Source: Candidatus Woesearchaeota archaeon (lineage in GTDB: Archaea > Nanobdellota > Nanobdellia > SCGC-AAA011-G17 > CAYFGV01). Taken from it: DNA of 40,462 nucleotides. A program made the translations under genes and the position numbers. The stretch covers positions 1 through 40,462 of the forward strand of contig CAYFGV010000004.1 of assembly GCA_964342845.1 (NCBI GenBank), given 5' to 3'. The notes under the pieces are model-generated. The model was given only the letters and a program-made list of their open reading frames with translations. It was not told where the DNA came from and did no database searches. The first letter of the stretch is position 1, and each line of letters starts with the position of its first letter. This document shows positions 13,092 through 22,717 of the stretch, piece after piece.

Positions 13092-13231
13092 TGTGAAATG
13101 CTAGAATTTTGGGATCTTGTAGCTATAATTCTTAGTAACGTTGTTTATAGAAAATAGCTAATAAGTTTTTAGCATTGCAAAATTTTCTACACTTGCGTGA
13201 GGTTTATAAGGGTGTTAGTATTATTATAAGG

Positions 13232-14068
13232 ATGGTAAAAAAAGATAAATCTTTGGCTGTTTTTCAAGGGAAGGGTATTAGGAGAATATGGCATAAAGAT
13301 GAGTGGTTTTTTTCTGTGGTTGATGTTGTAGGTGTTTTAATAAATAGTGAGAATCCTCGGAATTATTGGAAGGTTCTTAAACATCGTTTAAATGATGAAG
13401 GGAGCGAGGTGGTTACAAAATGTAACCAACTGAAATTAAAGGCTTCTGATAGTAAATATTATGCTACTGATTGTGCAAATACAGAAAATATATTTAGAAT
13501 AATTCAATCTATTCCTTCTAAAAAAGCCGAACCTTTTAAGAGTTGGTTGGCTAAGATAGGATATGAGCGCGTTCAAGAGATAGAAGACCCAGAGTTAGCA
13601 CAGAAAAGAATGAAAGAAATCTATAAGCAAAAGGGTTATTCTGATGAGTGGGTTGAAAAAAGAGTTAGAGGGATAGCGATAAGAGATGAGCTTACAGATG
13701 AATGGGGTAAACGAGGAGTAAAAGATGATTTAGGTTATTCTATTTTAACTTCTGAAATATCTAAGGCTACTTTTGGAGTGAGTCCTAGAGAGTATAAGAA
13801 GTTTAAGGGTTTAAAAAGAGAAAATCTTAGAGACCATATGGATGATATTGAGCTTGTTCTTACAATGCTTGGAGAGACAACTACAACAAGATTTACTAGA
13901 GATAGAGATTCTAAAAGATTTTTTGAGTTGAAAAAAGATGCTAAAGATGGTGGTGATGTTGCTGGAGATACTAGGAAGAATATAGAGAAAAAACTTGGGA
14001 AGAAAGTTATTTCTAAAGAGAACTATCTTTTGAAGGAAGAGAAGAGGAAGAGGATTGAGAATAAGTAA
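13232..14068 (+). CDS. Bro-N domain (phage antirepressor-like) protein
   Basis: IRRIWH..EWFFSVVDVV, PRNYWKVLK.RL, RIIQSIPS.KAEPFK.WLA. TATA at about 13203 places the start at ATG 13232. Confidence 0.85.
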   Translation: MVKKDKSLAVFQGKGIRRIWHKDEWFFSVVDVVGVLINSENPRNYWKVLKHRLNDEGSEVVTKCNQLKLKASDSKYYATDCANTENIFRIIQSIPSKKAEPFKSWLAKIGYERVQEIEDPELAQKRMKEIYKQKGYSDEWVEKRVRGIAIRDELTDEWGKRGVKDDLGYSILTSEISKATFGVSPREYKKFKGLKRENLRDHMDDIELVLTMLGETTTTRFTRDRDSKRFFELKKDAKDGGDVAGDTRKNIEKKLGKKVISKENYLLKEEKRKRIENK

Positions 14069-14743: not shown

Positions 14744-15349
14744 ATGGAGAAAGAGTTTAAACAGGCTGTTAATACATATAATAAGATAGCTAAGCTTTAT
14801 GCTGATTATACTTATACTAAACTTATGCAATTTCAGTTAACTAAGTTTATTTCTTTGCTGAAAGGAAAAAAGGTTTTGGATGCTGGTTGTGGTGGTGGAA
14901 GAGATGTTGAATATTTTAAAGAAGAGGGTTTGAGTGTGCTGGGTATAGATATTTCTGAAGAAATGATTAAAGAGGCTAAAAAAAGGGTTTCTGGTGCTAG
15001 GTTTGAAGTTATGGATTTTAGTGATATTAAATTAAAAGATTCAACTGTTGATGGTGTTTGGTGTATGGCTGGTTTTTTGCATACTCCTAGAGATGAGATT
15101 GTTAAGGTTTTAAAAGAATTTTTTAGGGTTTTAAAGAAAGAAGGTGTTGTTTATGTTGCTGTTAGAGAAGGTGTTGGCGAGAAGGAGATTCGTAAAGAGA
15201 AGTATGGAAATGAGCCTAGAACTTATGTTTATTTTTCTAAGGAAGAACTTGTTGGTTATTTAGAAGAAGCTGGTTTTTCAATTGTAGAAGCAGAAGTTAA
15301 TGATGATGGTGGGAAGAAGTGGGTTGAGATTTTTGGGGAGAAGAGTTAG
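14744..15349 (+). CDS. class I SAM-dependent methyltransferase
   Basis: VLDAGCGGG, GIDIS, DGVW...FLH, LK.EG. Confidence 0.9.
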   Translation: MEKEFKQAVNTYNKIAKLYADYTYTKLMQFQLTKFISLLKGKKVLDAGCGGGRDVEYFKEEGLSVLGIDISEEMIKEAKKRVSGARFEVMDFSDIKLKDSTVDGVWCMAGFLHTPRDEIVKVLKEFFRVLKKEGVVYVAVREGVGEKEIRKEKYGNEPRTYVYFSKEELVGYLEEAGFSIVEAEVNDDGGKKWVEIFGEKS

Positions 15350-15740
15350 ATTCTTTTTTTGAAACTAAGTATATTAATAATATTGCTCCTATTACGTTAA
15401 CTGAATCTGCTATGTTAAAAATTGGCCAAATTTGTAAATCTATGAAATCTCTTACAAAACCAAAGTAGATTCTGTCGAATAAATTTGATAAAGAGCCTGC
15501 TATTAAGAAAGTTAGAGGCAGATAATATTCTTTGTTTTTTATTAGGTAGTATATTAAGAAAGAGATAATTATTATTGTTGTCAAAATTAGAAATGTTGTT
15601 TGACCTGTTAAAATACTAAAAGCTGCTCCTGTGTTTTCTGCATAGTTTATTATTCCTTTATGTACATCTGTAAATATTATTTTTGTTAATTGATCTAAAA
15701 AAATGATTATAAAAGAAATTAAAAGTATTCTTTTTACCAT
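15297..15740 (-). CDS. lspA: lipoprotein signal peptidase II
   Basis: DQLTK, NTGAAFS, G..SN..DR, VRDFI and FNIAD (both catalytic Asp), hydrophobic segments. Confidence 0.9.
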   Translation of the reverse strand: MVKRILLISFIIIFLDQLTKIIFTDVHKGIINYAENTGAAFSILTGQTTFLILTTIIIISFLIYYLIKNKEYYLPLTFLIAGSLSNLFDRIYFGFVRDFIDLQIWPIFNIADSVNVIGAILLIYLVSKKESNSSPQKSQPTSSHHHH

Positions 15741-15967
15741 TTCAATGCTTCTGGTTTTTCTTGTGGTTGTGGTTGTAATCTTGCTTCTATGTTTTCTAAT
15801 CTAGCTTCAATATTTTTTAGTTTTGATACTATTAAATCTAATTTTGTTGCTACATTTTCGTCTAGAACTGGTTTTTCTTCATGTAAGAAACTAGATGGTT
15901 CGTCTTTTAATAATGATTCTTCTTTTGTTAAATCTATTGGCTCTTCTTTTTTCTTGAATGGAAACAT
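15734..15967 (-). CDS. small coiled-coil protein
   Basis: Heptads KLDLIVSKLKNIEARLENIEARL. TATA upstream, and the 3' end overlaps the lspA start. Confidence 0.7.
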   Translation of the reverse strand: MFPFKKKEEPIDLTKEESLLKDEPSSFLHEEKPVLDENVATKLDLIVSKLKNIEARLENIEARLQPQPQEKPEALKW

Positions 15968-16057
15968 AGAAAGATTTATATGTTAAAGAGTTTAAATAAT
16001 TTTTGGAAATGTTTATGTTTTTCTTGCTGTTATTTTTCTTGGTCTTGGCTAGTTATT

Positions 16058-16714
16058 CTAGTGGCTTTCTTGTTTATTTCCTTTTATGATTATTGTAGAG
16101 TAATCAAACCAAGTTAATTTTTGTAGTTCTTCTAAGTTTTCTTTTCTTATTTTACCTTCTTTAGTTAAACTTATTGGTCCTGTATCATGATATATAAAAT
16201 GAGTACTATCGTATCCTACAAGATATATATAATGTCCTTTTAGTTCATTCCTTTCTTTGTTTAATAGGTTAAAGTTGATTAATAGTAAAGGTATGTTTTC
16301 TTGTTCTAGTGCACATTCTAGATATTCTACATCTATTTTTTTATTTGTTCCTAGTTTTTGTTCTAGGACATATCCCATACATCTAAGAAGGTTTTCCGAA
16401 CTTATTTTTTGGAACATTTTACCTCCTCTTCTATACCCGTAGAACTCTCTCATTTTGTTTTCTAAGTCTGAGTTTAATGTTTCTATAAGTTCTTTTTCTT
16501 TGTATGGGTAATAAAAGCCAATTTTCTCTTGATGGAGAAAAGGTATTATTTCTATGGGAGAAATTAATTTATCTCCTTTTCTGTTTATCCCTCTTATAAT
16601 TTTCTTTGTTGAAAGAGTTATGCTAAAGTATTCTAACATTCCTTTTAAAGAATACTCTGTGCAGTAAGGTCCTTTATTTTGATAAAGTGGGACGGTTAAA
16701 AAGACATTTTCCAT
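16058..16714 (-). CDS. C39-like (papain-fold) cysteine peptidase, stand-alone
   Basis: VPLYQNKGPYC..SL.GML.YF (Gln/Cys) and GHYIYLVGYD...FIYHD (His/Asp). Confidence 0.75.
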   Translation of the reverse strand: MENVFLTVPLYQNKGPYCTEYSLKGMLEYFSITLSTKKIIRGINRKGDKLISPIEIIPFLHQEKIGFYYPYKEKELIETLNSDLENKMREFYGYRRGGKMFQKISSENLLRCMGYVLEQKLGTNKKIDVEYLECALEQENIPLLLINFNLLNKERNELKGHYIYLVGYDSTHFIYHDTGPISLTKEGKIRKENLEELQKLTWFDYSTIIIKGNKQESH

Positions 16715-16730
16715 TCTTTATTACCTTTCT

Positions 16731-17159
16731 CTATTTTCTATATCTTTGTCTGTAGTCATTATAAGTATCTGTATGTTTTCTACTAGTTTCGTCTGTATGA
16801 ATATCATCAAAATCAGTATGACTTCCCCGTCCTCTGTCACCTGCTCCGTAATCTGTTACATCACAGTGCGTTCCTGAAGTAGATTGGCGGTCTGTATGGC
16901 TATCTTCGTACCATGTATCTGAATGTCCATCTGTGTAATCTACATGGTCTTTATATTCTGAATAGTCACTGTGGTCTTTATAGTCTCTTTTGTGATAGTC
17001 TGCATGGTTATCTGAATGGCTGTCTCCGTAATTAAATAAAAATCTTCTTCCATCGTGAACCCTTCTATTGAATATTGAATTTAATCTTCTATTTTTAATT
17101 TTATTTAGATTTATTTTCCCCCCTTTAAATTCTATTATACATTCTTTTTTTTGATTCAT
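16731..17159 (-). CDS. putative RiPP precursor: basic leader plus His/Tyr-X-Asp repeat core
   Basis: 17 aromatic-X-Asp motifs in residues 44-135. SD AGGAGG. Lies between the rSAM/SPASM and peptidase genes. Confidence 0.8.
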   Translation of the reverse strand: MNQKKECIIEFKGGKINLNKIKNRRLNSIFNRRVHDGRRFLFNYGDSHSDNHADYHKRDYKDHSDYSEYKDHVDYTDGHSDTWYEDSHTDRQSTSGTHCDVTDYGAGDRGRGSHTDFDDIHTDETSRKHTDTYNDYRQRYRK

Positions 17160-17177
17160 TTTAATTGCCTCCTTAAT

Positions 17178-18290
17178 TTATTTTACCTCTGCTTTTTCTA
17201 ACTCTTGTTCAATTTTTCCTGCTATGTGTTGGAATAGTAGTTTGTAACTAGCACAATAATGATCTTTAGTATGGATATCTTCTGTGAACATATAGGCGTT
17301 GTGCATACACCCGGAATTACAAATTTTCTTATAATCACAACTAGTGCATTCTTCAATTTTTGAACTTCTTTGTCTTAGTTCACCTCTTTTTTCTGAAGTT
17401 AATACCTCATAAAGGTCGTTTTCATTTATGTTTCCTAGATTAAAATCTTCTATTCCTTCGAATCTTCCGCAAGGATAAATATCTCCTTCTGGACCTATTG
17501 AGATGAAACTACTTTGACATGAGATAGAATAATTACATCCCCAAGGTTCTTCTGTTAGAATATTTCCCATCAATTCTTCAAAAGGATCTATTGATACTGA
17601 TGAATCATCTTGAAACCACACATCAAATAGTTTTGTTAATGCTTTTCCGTATTCTGCTGAGCCAATACCTAAATCATGGTAGTTTATTGTTGCTTTTCCT
17701 GATTTAATAAGAGGGTTTAATTTAAGATTTATATTTTCTGTTTGAGCAAATTCATATATTTCTGTTAGGTAGTTTATGTTTAGCTTATTTACTACAACAA
17801 TAGCACCACCTCCAACATCTCTTTCTTGTGCTTTTTTGATTGCTTTTAGTGTTTTCTTAAAACTACTATTTTTGTTCTTAAAATGCCTTGTTCTATCATT
17901 TATTCTTTTTGGGCCGTCTAAACTAAACCCTAAATCAAAGCTGTATTCTTCACAAAAATCCAAAATTTCTTCAGTTACTAAAGTTCCATTAGTTTGGAAC
18001 CCGTTTGTTGTTTTTTTACCTGGGTATTTTCTTTGTAAATTGAGTGCTTTTTCATAAAATTCTATTGGCATCAACAATGGTTCTCCTCCGTGCCAAATAA
18101 AATGTACTATGTCATGAATTTCTAAAGATTTTGAAATCATATTTTCAAGGGTTTTATCATTCATTCTCTCTTGACTAGAATTATGGTCCGTATAACAATA
18201 TTCACATGAAAGGTTACATTCTGATGTTGGTTTGACTATTATTGAGAGTCTTCTTGGTGGTAATCTTGAATTTTTGGCTTTTTTTACCAT
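17178..18290 (-). CDS. radical SAM/SPASM peptide maturase
   Basis: KPTSECNLSCEYC, WHGGEPLL, QTNG, SLDGP. SPASM Cys set: CNYSISC, YPC, CTSCDYKKICNSGC, HYC. Confidence 0.92.
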   Translation of the reverse strand: MVKKAKNSRLPPRRLSIIVKPTSECNLSCEYCYTDHNSSQERMNDKTLENMISKSLEIHDIVHFIWHGGEPLLMPIEFYEKALNLQRKYPGKKTTNGFQTNGTLVTEEILDFCEEYSFDLGFSLDGPKRINDRTRHFKNKNSSFKKTLKAIKKAQERDVGGGAIVVVNKLNINYLTEIYEFAQTENINLKLNPLIKSGKATINYHDLGIGSAEYGKALTKLFDVWFQDDSSVSIDPFEELMGNILTEEPWGCNYSISCQSSFISIGPEGDIYPCGRFEGIEDFNLGNINENDLYEVLTSEKRGELRQRSSKIEECTSCDYKKICNSGCMHNAYMFTEDIHTKDHYCASYKLLFQHIAGKIEQELEKAEVK

Positions 18291-18323
18291 TTTGTAGGCC
18301 TAAATTAGGTTAACTACTACTTC

Positions 18324-18340
18324 CTTATAAAATTTGTGTT
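18324..18340 (-). promoter_or_regulatory. TATA box of the rSAM operon
   Basis: Minus strand reads CACAAATTTTATAAG about 35 nt upstream of the rSAM ATG, back-to-back with the + promoter AGAAAAGTTTATA at about 18358. Confidence 0.55.
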
Positions 18341-18397
18341 TTGATTAATTATTGGATAGAAAAGTTTATATTGTTTCTAATTTAAATATAATCTAAA

Positions 18398-19960
18398 ATG
18401 GTAGGTAAAAGAGCTAAAAAAATTTTAGAGGACTCTAGAAAAAGAGCTAGTAAAGAAGTTGAAAAGATTTTAGAAGAAACAGAAAAAGAAAAGGATTTTA
18501 TTAGTTTTCTCAGAAAAGAATTAGAAGAGAATAAAGCTTTAACTCCTACAGGTAAGACGGCTTTAAGAAAAATATTAATTAAATTAATTAAAGAGAAAGG
18601 AGAAGTTAAATTAAAATCTAAAGAAGTTCTTGAATATGATATTGTTTATGATACGGTTGGTCAAGGGCTGGAGCCAGTTTATTTTTGGACATTGGATTTT
18701 ATGACTGCACCTAAACCAACTGGTGCTTTACAAATGGAAGTTAATAAGGTAGAAGAGGATTTTGAGGCTAGTGTTGGTTCTGCTTTTTTTTCTGAGATGG
18801 GTCAGAGGGCAGGGATAATGCAGGATAGAGCAATGAAGCTTATGGAAACAGTAAATACTGTGGTTAGAAGCATTATAAATTTGATTTATGATCTGAAAGA
18901 ATTTAAAACTAGATTGGATGTATATGATGCTGCTAAAGGGGATAAAAAGAATGATAGGCTTGCTGCTGAGTTAGCTTTGAAACAGGTATGGCTTGATACT
19001 GTAGATATGAAGAAAGGAAGAGGAGCAATACATGCTATGGGGCAACAGCTTGAATTTGTTACTTTGAGAGATGCTTTTATACAAGCTAAGAGTGTTGATC
19101 ATATTGAAGGGATGGATCTTAATACAAGAGTTAAGAATATTTTAAAACCTAGATTGAAAGAGTTTTTTATTTGGAGAGTTGAGAGTGAGAGGGAGTTAAG
19201 GAAGAGATATCAAATTGAGAGGGGTTATTTGAGAACACAAGCTGATTCTTTAAAATTATACACTCAATGGGCAAAGCCTTTTTTAAAGGCTGCGCAGAAG
19301 CTAGGGATGCATGAATTTAAGACAAAGGCTAATCTACCGAGTCCTGAATTAGTTGCTGCTTTTAATAATATGGTGATGGAGCTGAGATTGTTTGGAAAGA
19401 AAAGAATTCCTCCTGAAACAGCACATAAAAGATTTGGAAATATGAAATTTAAAAATGAGTATTATTCTTGTTTGGATGTAGGTTTTAAGTATAGGTCTAT
19501 TCCTACGTCTGTTCAAGGGCAATATTTGCATAGGGGAACAATTAATGTTAAAATTAAGGCCTATGTTTTTACTGAAAAGGATGTTGAAGATATTGAAAAA
19601 CAGGAACTATTCGAAGGTATGGATTTGGTTGATAATCTAACAGATGTTAGTTTGAAAGAATTATATGAGGATATTGATCATTATATAACAGAGGCTAAGG
19701 AAGAAGGTAAAGAGAAAGATGTTAAGAAGAAGGAATTTAAATTACCTTTTGGAAATATTTTTGAAGGATTTCAAGAGGGTGTTGTTGGGCCTGCTAAGGG
19801 TGCTGCTAAAGAGTTTGTTAGAGTTTTTAAACCGAGCAAGGTTCTGTCTAGTGATTATGCTGAAGACGCGGTTAAGAAGGCTGCTACTGATAAGGCTGTG
19901 GGTCAATGTGTTTTAATTTATGATATTTTTAAGAAAGGTCATAGAATGGTTACTTGGTAG
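18398..19960 (+). CDS. large helical hypothetical protein (resembles a DPANN-conserved family)
   Basis: 520-aa ORF with its own promoter and conserved-looking blocks (LEPVYFW.LD, FVTLRDAF, LKLYTQWAKPFL). No catalytic motif recognised. Confidence 0.8.
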   Translation: MVGKRAKKILEDSRKRASKEVEKILEETEKEKDFISFLRKELEENKALTPTGKTALRKILIKLIKEKGEVKLKSKEVLEYDIVYDTVGQGLEPVYFWTLDFMTAPKPTGALQMEVNKVEEDFEASVGSAFFSEMGQRAGIMQDRAMKLMETVNTVVRSIINLIYDLKEFKTRLDVYDAAKGDKKNDRLAAELALKQVWLDTVDMKKGRGAIHAMGQQLEFVTLRDAFIQAKSVDHIEGMDLNTRVKNILKPRLKEFFIWRVESERELRKRYQIERGYLRTQADSLKLYTQWAKPFLKAAQKLGMHEFKTKANLPSPELVAAFNNMVMELRLFGKKRIPPETAHKRFGNMKFKNEYYSCLDVGFKYRSIPTSVQGQYLHRGTINVKIKAYVFTEKDVEDIEKQELFEGMDLVDNLTDVSLKELYEDIDHYITEAKEEGKEKDVKKKEFKLPFGNIFEGFQEGVVGPAKGAAKEFVRVFKPSKVLSSDYAEDAVKKAATDKAVGQCVLIYDIFKKGHRMVTW

Positions 19961-20319: not shown

Positions 20320-20841
20320 ATGGGTAAGAATAAGAAAAGGATTATAAAGAAGAAAGAAAAAAGATTAAAAGAGAAGAGAGAATTAGAAAAGAAGGAAAAG
20401 TTAGAAGAAAAGGTTAAAAACGAAGAAAAGCAAGAGATAGCTAATATTGATGATTTTGAGAGAGAAAGTAAAAAGGTTTTAAAACTAGAGCCTGTTATTG
20501 AAGAGGTTAGGGTTGAGAGAGGGTTTGTAGAGGAGCAGGTGAGAGGTGTTAGGGTTCCTGAGGAAAAAGAGAAGAAAAATTATTTTGAATCAGGCTATGG
20601 AACAAAGTTTACTGGGTATGATTTACCTGCTAGTGATTCATATGATGTTGGTGGCAGGCTTGCAGAGGCAGTGGCTGAAAAACTTAAGGGAAGTGTTGGT
20701 GAAGGGGTTATTACTGAAGAAAAGAAAAGAGAAATTAATGAAAAATTAGGGGAGATTGTTGGAATGGAAAATGTGACTAAGTATGGAGCTGCTGTTGTTG
20801 ATGCTTTTAAGAAGAAGAGGTTTATGATAAAATATGAGTGA
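20320..20841 (+). CDS. hypothetical charged protein
   Basis: K/E-rich ORF that overlaps the start of the next gene by 8 bp. Confidence 0.65.
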   Translation: MGKNKKRIIKKKEKRLKEKRELEKKEKLEEKVKNEEKQEIANIDDFERESKKVLKLEPVIEEVRVERGFVEEQVRGVRVPEEKEKKNYFESGYGTKFTGYDLPASDSYDVGGRLAEAVAEKLKGSVGEGVITEEKKREINEKLGEIVGMENVTKYGAAVVDAFKKKRFMIKYE

Positions 20842-22717
20842 ATATGAATTTAAAAGGGAATATAGAAGTGTGATGGATAGTGGTGTTCCTCAGAGAAGTA
20901 TTGGTGCTCCTACTAGTATAAAGACTGCTAATCAGCTTTCTGAAGTTAATAAGAGATTAAATGCAGGTGTATACGGGGTGGATGTTTCTATTGTTGATCC
21001 AAAGGTTTTTGAGGCTATTCCTAAGCAGCATTTAAAAGAGATAAGTAGGATGGCTGATATGAATGATGCTAAAGTTACTTTACATGCACCAATAGTTGAT
21101 TTAATTGGTATGGATCAACAGGGAAGAATAACTGAAGAGTCAAGAAAAGATAATGAGATGCAGATGAAGAGTTTTATGGAAAGAGCTCATATGTTGGATG
21201 AAAAGGGGAATATTCCTGTTAATTTTCATGTTAATGTTGGTACTCCTGGAGTGCATAAGATTAAGATGAGTGATGATGATGTTAAGGAGTGGAAATCTAA
21301 GTTAAAGGATTTTGATAAGAAAAGCAGAGAAAAAATAGAAGGATGGATTAAGAATAAAGAATTTATTAGGAGTATGGGAATTTTTGATCAGGCTGAAAAG
21401 AAGGTTAGTGCTGTTGAGACAAAAGTTAAACATAGTCTTCAGGGAGATGTGTTATGGGATCCTGAAAAGAGTATAGATAATCAAAATAGGGTTTCATGGG
21501 ATAATGATAAATTACAGGTTATGAACTGGGAAAAGCAAAAGAGAGAAATTGAGGAAGAAAAAAAGACGATTGAGCTTCCGTTGGTAGAATTAGAACATAA
21601 AGAAAAGTTAGATAGACTTGAGGGAAATGAAAAGAACCAACTTAATTATTTAAGAAATGAGAAAAATAAGTTTGATAGACATATTAGTGAATTTGATACT
21701 CATATTGGTAGTACTGCAATAGAAATGCATGATAAATTTAAAAAGTTTAAATCTGAAAAAGATTATAAAGAAGGAGATAAAGAAGCTTTGAAAGTTCTTG
21801 GTGTGTTAAAGAATAAGTTTATTGAAGTTGGGGATCAGTTGGAAAAAGCAAGAAAAAAAGGTGATGTTTCTAAGTTTAATGAGTTGGTTGAGGAGCAAAA
21901 TAAATTAACTGATGATTCTTCGAGTGCTATAATGAATTTGTCTGCTCCTAGAATTGTGATTCCTGCTGACGAGATAGCTGAAGAAAAGACTGCTGAGAGT
22001 GTAAGTAATGTAGTTTTTGATAGTTATGAGAAGTTTGAGAATGAAGCTCCTACTTTTTGTTTGGAGAATTATATGCCTGGGTTAACTTTAGGGAGTGCTG
22101 AGAAATTAAAGGATGTTATTCAGGAGTCAAGGAAAAGATTTGCTGATAAGTTAGTTGAGAAAAGAGGATTAACAAAAACTGAAGCAAAAGCTGCTGCTGA
22201 GAAGTTTATTGGTGCGACATGGGATGTTGGGCATGCTAATTTTTTAAGGAAGCATGGTTATGGTAAGAAAGAGATTGTCAAGGAAGCGGAAAAGATTGCG
22301 CCTTATGTTAAACAGATGCACATTACTGATAATTTTGGTTTTGATGATAGTCATCTACCTCCTGGGATGGGAAATGTTCCTACAAAAGAACAAATAGAGG
22401 CTATAAGAAAAGGAGGAAAGTTTGATTTTGATAAAGGAAACTTAATTGTTGAGGCTGGTCCGTTTGCTGCTAGTTTTGAAACAAATCCTCATTTGTATGC
22501 TTTAGAAGGGTTGGGATCTCCTGTTTATCCTGGTGGAAGTTTGTGGAGTGATGTAAGAGATTTACAAGGGGCGTATAGAACTGGTTTTGGGGAGATTTTG
22601 CCTGATGTTCATTTTAAGAGTTTGTATGGTGGTGGTTTTAGTAATTTACCTCCTGAGTTAGGTGGACAGATGGGTGGTGGCGCAGGAGAAAAAGGAAGAT
22701 TTGCTCAAGGACAATAG
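20834..22717 (+). CDS. xylose-isomerase-like/AP-endonuclease-2 TIM-barrel metalloprotein with large helical insert
   Basis: TLHAP, NFH, LEN, WDVGH, HITDN....DSHLPPG.GN, VE metal-ligand motifs. Confidence 0.8.
   Translation: MSEYEFKREYRSVMDSGVPQRSIGAPTSIKTANQLSEVNKRLNAGVYGVDVSIVDPKVFEAIPKQHLKEISRMADMNDAKVTLHAPIVDLIGMDQQGRITEESRKDNEMQMKSFMERAHMLDEKGNIPVNFHVNVGTPGVHKIKMSDDDVKEWKSKLKDFDKKSREKIEGWIKNKEFIRSMGIFDQAEKKVSAVETKVKHSLQGDVLWDPEKSIDNQNRVSWDNDKLQVMNWEKQKREIEEEKKTIELPLVELEHKEKLDRLEGNEKNQLNYLRNEKNKFDRHISEFDTHIGSTAIEMHDKFKKFKSEKDYKEGDKEALKVLGVLKNKFIEVGDQLEKARKKGDVSKFNELVEEQNKLTDDSSSAIMNLSAPRIVIPADEIAEEKTAESVSNVVFDSYEKFENEAPTFCLENYMPGLTLGSAEKLKDVIQESRKRFADKLVEKRGLTKTEAKAAAEKFIGATWDVGHANFLRKHGYGKKEIVKEAEKIAPYVKQMHITDNFGFDDSHLPPGMGNVPTKEQIEAIRKGGKFDFDKGNLIVEAGPFAASFETNPHLYALEGLGSPVYPGGSLWSDVRDLQGAYRTGFGEILPDVHFKSLYGGGFSNLPPELGGQMGGGAGEKGRFAQGQ

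Follow-up and report, generated by a model that had tools for sequence, protein, structure and literature searches.

Triceptides are peptides made by the ribosome and modified after translation (RiPPs), and they are defined by an aromatic-X2-X3 layout, in which the ring of residue 1 is joined to the C-beta of residue 3 (PMC11499958). The characterised motifs HTK, HAA, HNR, YDR, YSK, HAS, FTK and WPR, of which HTK, HAA, HNR and HAS are the known His-based ones, have Lys, Arg, Ala, Ser or Asn as their last residue, and the characterised examples considered here carry one to three motifs. According to PMC12912966 and PMC11499958, the maturases, in particular the His-modifying HtkB, HaaB, YhhB and MicB, are radical S-adenosylmethionine (rSAM)/SPASM enzymes of about 370 amino acids without a RiPP recognition element (RRE), a protease is encoded in some clusters, and in characterised triceptides the cut falls ahead of the first motif that forms a ring; PMC12912966 also gives triceptide and daropeptide maturases a common origin. 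Darobactin- and dynobactin-type cyclophane synthases are nearest in sequence to sulfatase maturases but differ in chemistry, and the dynobactin maturase (NF041298 'DynA'; DynB in PMC10288494) makes three-residue links, one Trp-Asn C-C and one His-Tyr N-C (PMC10288494). Here we describe a three-gene cassette on the minus strand of a contig from a Candidatus Woesearchaeota archaeon (CAYFGV010000004.1, assembly GCA_964342845.1), in which the gene for an rSAM/SPASM enzyme is followed by genes for a small precursor peptide and a C39-like peptidase. The window refers throughout to the whole 40,462 nucleotides analysed, which is contig 4 of a 573-kb genome in 28 contigs with an estimated completeness of 84.8%.

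We consider it probable, at roughly 0.6, that this locus is a RiPP maturation cassette of the triceptide kind, in which His or Tyr would be cross-linked to the Asp or Glu two residues further on. The computational checks proposed at first pass came out in favour of that interpretation. It resembles the triceptide systems in its RRE-less enzyme of the same size and in having several aromatic-X2-X3 motifs with position 2 free and His and Tyr at position 1, but it differs in that position 3 is Asp or Glu, in the up to 17 motifs of the window peptide, in its own leader family and in its mostly DPANN archaeal hosts. As at the dynobactin locus, the enzyme gene is followed directly by the precursor gene, whereas dynobactin precursors have a single short C-terminal core unlike those described here. 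The anaerobic sulfatase-maturating enzyme (anSME; TIGR03942; PDB 4K36-4K39) is the closest solved structure and shares length, domain order and eleven cluster Cys with the window enzyme. The uncharacterised His-Xaa-Ser system (HxsA with the rSAM proteins HxsB and HxsC; TIGR03978) likewise has a small His-x-repeat protein beside an rSAM/SPASM enzyme, but the window cassette has one rSAM, not two, and its repeat is HxD/YxD/E. QhpD, the quinohemoprotein amine dehydrogenase maturase, is an rSAM/SPASM enzyme with a small acidic substrate (PMC13692751), but its products are Cys thioethers and it depends on an RRE, and the cores of the present family are almost Cys-free. The kind of system, an rSAM/SPASM cyclophane-type RiPP, is already known, and what appears to be new is the family of precursors, an acidic residue as acceptor, how many motifs a single peptide carries and the mainly DPANN distribution. 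No paper, specific name or curated model was found for the family, and an unnamed cluster in published triceptide networks could already contain these enzymes.

The precursor and its rSAM/SPASM enzyme

The ORF (open reading frame) coordinates in the window give three co-oriented minus-strand genes with intergenic gaps of 18 and 16 bp, in agreement with the first-pass annotation of this DNA. The parts of the cassette are as follows.

17178-18290, minus strand: rSAM/SPASM maturase, 370 amino acids, with CX3CX2C at C25/C29/C32 and eight auxiliary-cluster Cys (ORF, Pfam, NCBIfam)
17160-17177, minus strand: 18-bp spacer between rSAM and precursor, containing AGGAGG (read from the sequence)
16731-17159, minus strand: precursor, 142 amino acids (ORF)
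17031-17159, minus strand: precursor leader, residues 1-43, basic, with the family motif (leader alignments and profile)
16734-17030, minus strand: precursor core, residues 44-142, with 17 aromatic-x-Asp motifs (motif count, shuffles)
16731-16733, minus strand: precursor stop codon
16058-16714, minus strand: C39-like cysteine peptidase (probable papain fold), 218 amino acids, candidate triad C18/H161/D177 (Pfam, relatives, ESM Atlas)
18325-18332, minus strand: TATA-like octamer, candidate promoter, 35-42 nt upstream of the rSAM ATG

A basic leader of about 43 residues and a core with 17 aromatic-x-Asp motifs had been proposed for the 142-residue peptide, and counting bears this out. All of the motifs (10 HxD, 6 YxD and 1 FxD) lie from residue 44 on, and 17 was reached in none of 20,000 shuffles, for which the mean was 4.5 motifs when the whole peptide was permuted and 5.0 when only the core was. 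Residues 1-43 contain 12 Lys or Arg against 3 Asp or Glu, making the leader basic, and the ribosome-binding-like AGGAGG is positioned 8 nt 5' of the precursor ATG. In the aligned relatives, the leader has a recognizable motif, consisting of a Gly followed by I-D/N-L-x-K-I-x-N-x-x-L with F-L-F at the end, and N23 is invariant in alignments of 23 and of 30 sequences.

A leader profile of 46 positions was searched against 1.84 billion representative proteins at a threshold of E <= 1e-3, and matched 162 representative small proteins. The best 150 of these 162 are 45-167 amino acids long and match near the N-terminus in nearly all cases; at least three aromatic-x-Asp motifs are found in 132 of them and at least five in 101, with the window peptide having the highest count. 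In the same 150 proteins, the residue two positions after His is Asp in 426 cases and Glu in 169, followed by Tyr in 30, and the residue two positions after Tyr is Asp in 422 and Glu in 218, while the middle residue of the motif is variable (Thr 145, Ser 76, Arg 33, Lys 32 and others). The motif-rich core described earlier as HxD/YxD is found again in the relatives, but the acceptor must be written as Asp or Glu. In one close pair, identity is 85% between the enzymes and 90% between the leaders, but 31% between the cores, and a conserved leader with a drifting core is typical of RiPP precursors. Public records that name these relatives call them 'hypothetical protein', neither the window precursor nor any of 30 precursors tested has a match in NCBIfam, and Pfam gave one weak match.

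Pfam places the Radical_SAM domain at residues 20-182 of the enzyme and SPASM at 259-319, and because nothing is found N-terminal of residue 20, the protein has no RRE. C25, C29 and C32, together with Cys 252, 258, 274, 315, 318, 324, 328 and 346, are invariant in 30 homologues, and all eleven align with the cluster Cys of solved anSME (4K36-4K39) in a full-length alignment with an E value of 3e-43. Full Cys sets for three [4Fe-4S] clusters are thus present, and the earlier description of a 370-residue enzyme with a complete SPASM Cys set and no RRE stands.

Scoring against curated models, which had been suggested as a check, identified the dynobactin maturase model NF041298 as the best match (332.3 bits, cut-off 450) and the sulfatase maturase model TIGR03942 as the second (267.1 bits, cut-off 349.45), both below cut-off. 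Scores on the triceptide-related models were 100-154 bits and far under their cut-offs (YhhB 154.1 against 445, GrrM/OscB 145.6 against 310, FxsB 107 against 370 and XyeB 100.5 against 450), and the AmcB (118.3 against 425), QhpD (111 against 453) and HxsB (104.2 against 370) models gave similar results. All 30 family members tested match the DynA model and behave like the window enzyme, whereas the Photorhabdus australis dynobactin enzyme (609 bits) and a Pandoraea homologue (588) pass it. Identity to the window enzyme is 35% for the Photorhabdus and Pandoraea enzymes and 30-31% for two canonical sulfatase maturases. The enzyme is thus shown to be kin to the cyclophane synthases.

In a careful tree, the window enzyme falls in a clade of 8 rows (support 100/100) that is nested in a group of 25 (92/91), 19 of which have leader matches, and the dynobactin/Pandoraea clade is separate (100/100) on an unresolved backbone. 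A 36-row clade of a quicker tree was without support in the careful one and was discarded. A further quick tree had 63 rows, with the two canonical sulfatase maturases added from Bacteroidota-clade genomes, and in it these two and three others were split (SH-like approximate likelihood ratio test 94) from 58 rows that include the window, the canonical enzymes lying on a long branch away from the window group. The window enzyme does not group with canonical sulfatase maturases; such a grouping, with neighbourhoods lacking these peptides, is what the first-pass annotation had named as speaking against its proposal. In addition, a search for sulfatase PF00884 gave 0 matches in the window genome (84.8% complete), while the control search was positive in 10 of 14 genomes. 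The only other rSAM match in the window genome is distant (E 7.5e-6) and on a different contig.

Enzyme-precursor pairing and the optional peptidase

Loci were pooled from reference genomes (80) and metagenomes (80), giving 143 different enzymes, and were split at 40% rSAM identity to the window enzyme, with a precursor called by the leader profile, adjacent to the enzyme gene or fused to it. At 40% identity or more, 37 of the 45 assessable loci encode a small protein, either next to the enzyme or as part of it, that combines this leader with a core rich in [His/Tyr]-x-[Asp/Glu]; among loci under 40%, the leader profile identified a precursor in 2 of 84. In four loci (L049, L065, L131 and L145), rSAM and precursor are fused into a single ORF. 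Within the phylum, the enzyme (E <= 1e-30) has a patchy presence in 22 of 401 genomes, the window genome included. Seven of the eight genomes with an enzyme 34-66% identical have one to four small ORFs directly after it, with a common N-terminal leader and a His/Tyr/Asp-rich core. The leader profile matched in 8 of the 401 genomes; six of the matches adjoin an rSAM gene, and the remaining two are an orphan precursor (G284) and a 26-codon frame with a stop. These data show that the pairing of enzyme and precursor is conserved, fusions included. Individual ORFs referred to here are as follows.

L049, 5920-7425: rSAM-precursor fusion
L065, 3202-4611: rSAM-precursor fusion
G284:C6, locus L199, 4832-5119, minus strand: orphan precursor, 95 amino acids, good leader match, nine HxD motifs

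The fusion proteins have leader and core at the C-terminus of the rSAM, are 439-501 amino acids long, and one comes from an Anaerolineales bacterium.

The window peptidase scored 20.9 bits (E 5.7e-4) against Pfam C39_2 (PF13529, in the C39-like clan with PF03412 and PF11814), below the gathering cut-off of 24, and four of seven relatives match the same family, with a best E value of 3.6e-6. A Cys/His/Asp triad had been assigned to it. C18, near the N-terminus, and H161, in a G-H-aromatic motif, are both conserved and are invariant in the seven relatives, so that this part of the assignment holds, but the position of D177 is Asp in four, Asn in two and Glu in one; D204 is invariant. In weak profile matches (E 0.023 and 0.22), 3ERV and the ComA peptidase domain have their Cys and His regions opposite C18 and H161. 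The ESM Atlas neighbours of the protein are all C39-like (0.96 by features; structural template-modelling scores 0.78 and 0.84, with a predicted score, pTM, of 0.87 for the Atlas model). Together, this suggests that the peptidase belongs to the C39-like fold class. A word-based homologue search with the peptidase returned itself and one relative at 51% identity. A peptidase homologue lies directly after the precursors in 9 of the 45 family loci and is therefore a recurrent but optional part of the cassette. The expectation that HxD/YxD ORFs and C39 genes would lie beside homologues of the enzyme is hence correct for the ORFs, in 37 of 45 loci, but less so for the peptidase. At L056 (2807-4126), the peptidase takes a form of 439 amino acids that is extended at the N-terminus by about 220 residues. 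With its leader profile, motif rule, enzyme-precursor fusions and optional dedicated peptidase, the family is well defined.

Several observations concern the wider enzyme superfamily. A well-supported clade of dynobactin-maturase-like rSAM enzymes occurs in Bacteroidota (L070, L075, L091 and 16 other loci; L201 and L202). A reading of its 19 rows as sulfatase maturases was rejected, since they score 210-235 bits with the sulfatase maturase model and 260-302 with DynA, all below cut-off; in two of five Bacteroidota genomes searched, the clade enzyme occurs alongside a canonical sulfatase maturase. Sister enzyme clades have other small ORFs on their 3' side, one set with a Tyr/Phe-rich C-terminus ending Y-K-Y-A-F-F (L052, L058 and L064) and a second with a Cys/Gly-rich tail following K-H-S-D-W (L077, L081, L100 and L110), and both sets could represent additional precursor families, as yet without a name, that belong to this enzyme superfamily. 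Four rSAM homologues of 446-490 amino acids (P0017, P0019, P0021 and P0029; 50-52% identity) carry C-terminal TPR repeats. The HtkB/HaaB specificity residue D214/H204 (PMC11499958) could not be mapped reliably, a Pandoraea homologue from another strain having Ser at 214.

Proposed chemistry and rival explanations

In the proposed scheme, the basic leader of about 43 residues would dock the 142-residue precursor onto the RRE-less rSAM/SPASM enzyme, which would cleave S-adenosylmethionine reductively to a 5'-deoxyadenosyl radical. In each [His/Tyr]-x-[Asp/Glu] motif, this radical would abstract a hydrogen from the C-beta of the acidic residue in position 3, and the carbon radical so formed would attack the ring of the His or Tyr in position 1. 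Every motif closed into a three-residue cyclophane in this way would lose 2 Da, and the window peptide could hold as many as about 17 rings. The C39-like peptidase would then cut off the leader or fragment the core. We infer leader binding, the site of hydrogen abstraction, bond type, cleavage site and product role, as well as cyclophane chemistry in the window peptide itself. The fixation of positions 1 and 3 with position 2 free points to a relation between residues 1 and 3, and cyclophanes from His/Tyr to Asp/Glu are favoured because of the triceptide layout, the His-based examples and the precedent of QhpD, which attacks Asp C-beta and Glu C-gamma (PMC13692751). Thioether chemistry is unlikely, since Cys makes up only 1.0% of the family cores (best 150 of 162 matches).

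A number of observations weigh against this interpretation. The enzyme is below the curated NCBIfam cut-off of every named family, and none of the characterised triceptide motifs in the accessible literature has an Asp or Glu acceptor. The leaders resemble dynobactin-type leaders by eye in N-x-x-L, but homology was rejected, as hhalign gives the two a probability of only 1.7%. Eight of the 45 family loci lack a precursor by the profile, and the orphan precursor of G284 has no rSAM gene within 7.6 kb, nor did the window query find one elsewhere in that 93% complete genome. No peptidase is present at 36 of the 45 loci. For classical C39 domains, the cleavage site is a double glycine where the leader ends, and a conserved Gly-Gly at the leader-core border is absent in the 23 and 30 aligned precursors. 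As noted at first pass, the window ORFs include no exporter gene within the cassette. Finally, Ser or Thr occupies 221 of the 426 middle positions of HxD in the best 150 matches.

The last of these makes another modification a live rival, albeit one that we regard as rather unlikely. The cassette and the pairing would be as described, but the enzyme would oxidise the middle Ser or Thr (formylglycine or keto-type), epimerise residues, hydroxylate Asp or Glu or make some other change, or form a C-O or C-N link. Sulfatase maturases provide both the second-best model and the best solved structure, which fits such an activity, and Ma et al. are said to have reported in 2021 a cyclophane synthase that makes formylglycine and aminomalonate in vitro. 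The dynobactin maturase itself forms an N-C link (PMC10288494). Against this rival, positions 1 and 3 are fixed and position 2 varies widely, being also Arg, Lys, Asn, His, Val or Ile, which points to a relation between residues 1 and 3. Moreover, the Asp that follows Y-P-C in the solved sulfatase maturase, and which we take to be its proposed catalytic base, is Gly in the window enzyme and a nearly invariant Gly in the family.

The resemblance to 4K36-4K39 over the full length and the 267 bits on TIGR03942 could also mean that the enzyme is a sulfatase-maturase-type protein maturase with another substrate, and that the 142-residue ORF is an unrelated neighbour whose His/Asp-rich composition would bind metals. 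We regard this as very improbable, given that the small ORF tracks the enzyme (37 of 45 against 2 of 84 loci, with four fusions), that the TIGR03942 score is under the cut-off of 349, that the enzyme's tree position is apart from the two canonical sulfatase maturases, and that no PF00884 sulfatase was found in the window genome at 84.8% completeness. The possibility that the ORF is not a real gene, its many motifs being a side effect of composition or of what the opposite strand encodes, has practically no weight: the ORF is short, the DNA is AT-rich and the runs listed for the stretch include none of RNA, but nothing specific suggests that it is spurious, and against this stand the 20,000 shuffles that never reach its motif count, the AGGAGG that precedes it, 162 representative homologues with the same leader and orthologues at the same position in other genomes.

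Cross-linking of His or Tyr to Asp or Glu in a triceptide-like cassette remains our preferred interpretation. A bolder version, to which we give somewhat less than an even chance, would make these the first archaeal triceptides and would add a new cross-link, from a His or Tyr ring to an Asp or Glu side-chain carbon, up to 17 times per peptide, in a rigid poly-cyclophane, dense in rings and binding metals strongly, made by a small cassette that comes and goes at one site in ultra-small symbiotic DPANN archaea. That the product is a metal-binding peptide is a guess from the richness of the sequence in His, Asp, Glu and Tyr.

Genomic setting and distribution

The cassette lies between a signal-peptidase-II-like gene, which is accompanied by a conserved 77-residue ORF, and a gene for a 520-residue protein (window 15297-18397). 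Features of the surrounding DNA are listed below.

13175-14068: Bro-N domain protein, a type often met in viruses and mobile elements, at a distance of 2 kb from the cassette
15297-15740: signal-peptidase-II (Peptidase_A8) homologue
15966-15998, no strand assigned: promoter-like direct repeat, left copy, 33 nt (family D3, 73% identity to the right copy)
18356-18388, no strand assigned: promoter-like direct repeat, right copy, 33 nt, just upstream of the 520-residue gene (family D3)
18398-19960: 520-residue protein
20834-22717: 627-residue protein with a partial xylose-isomerase-like TIM-barrel match

In four related genomes (G320, G088, G101 and G027), both flanking genes are adjacent and the cassette is absent, while G310 (junctions in L004) has the enzyme and three precursors at this site, oriented the other way round and lacking a peptidase; the loci compared are L004 and L114-L118. 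An element of about 30-33 nt resembling the direct repeat that brackets the cassette recurs in G310, where both junctions have it, and in G088, whose empty site has a single copy. From sequence comparison, the repeat may be a duplicated target or promoter, a shared promoter consensus, or a chance similarity. The arrangement fits an accessory cassette gained or lost at one site; alternatively, the repeats may be only promoter consensus. The first-pass annotation placed the three genes behind one TATA promoter. The octamer at 18325-18332, TTTTATAA, is plausible as the rSAM promoter, but the window has 20 copies of it where 15.9 are expected, no more than chance, and because its frequency is so close to expectation the promoter call is weak.

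No Pfam family and no usable ESM Atlas match was found for the 520-residue neighbour. Homologues of the 520- and 627-residue proteins adjoin rSAM in 11 and 8 of 50 family loci, respectively, and are also found in relatives without the cassette; their proximity to rSAM may reflect conserved DPANN synteny or a functional link. The signal-peptidase-II homologue is found here in an archaeal genome of DPANN size.

At least half of the sampled words of the DNA stretch are present in four sequencing runs, three from marine metagenomes and one labelled 'organism A', and contigs of the four runs (X1, X3, X4 and X6) match the stretch with 0-1 differences, X3 and X4 being possibly one data set. None of the runs listed for the stretch is an RNA run, and matches to runs are uninformative on selection or expression.

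Genome loci whose rSAM shares 40% identity or more with that of the window number 29, and 23 of these belong to archaea and 6 to bacteria. The cassette family is patchy, with DPANN archaea as its main home and a few bacteria, so that a locus that had been regarded as unexpected in a DPANN archaeon is in fact most at home there. If the proposed chemistry is correct, cyclophane formation by rSAM enzymes would extend to acidic acceptor residues and to more than 12 rings per peptide, as well as to archaea whose genomes, at about 0.6 Mb, are regarded as retaining hardly more than the essentials. That a 2.2-kb cassette is retained there suggests a function worth its cost, such as metal capture or dealings with a host cell.

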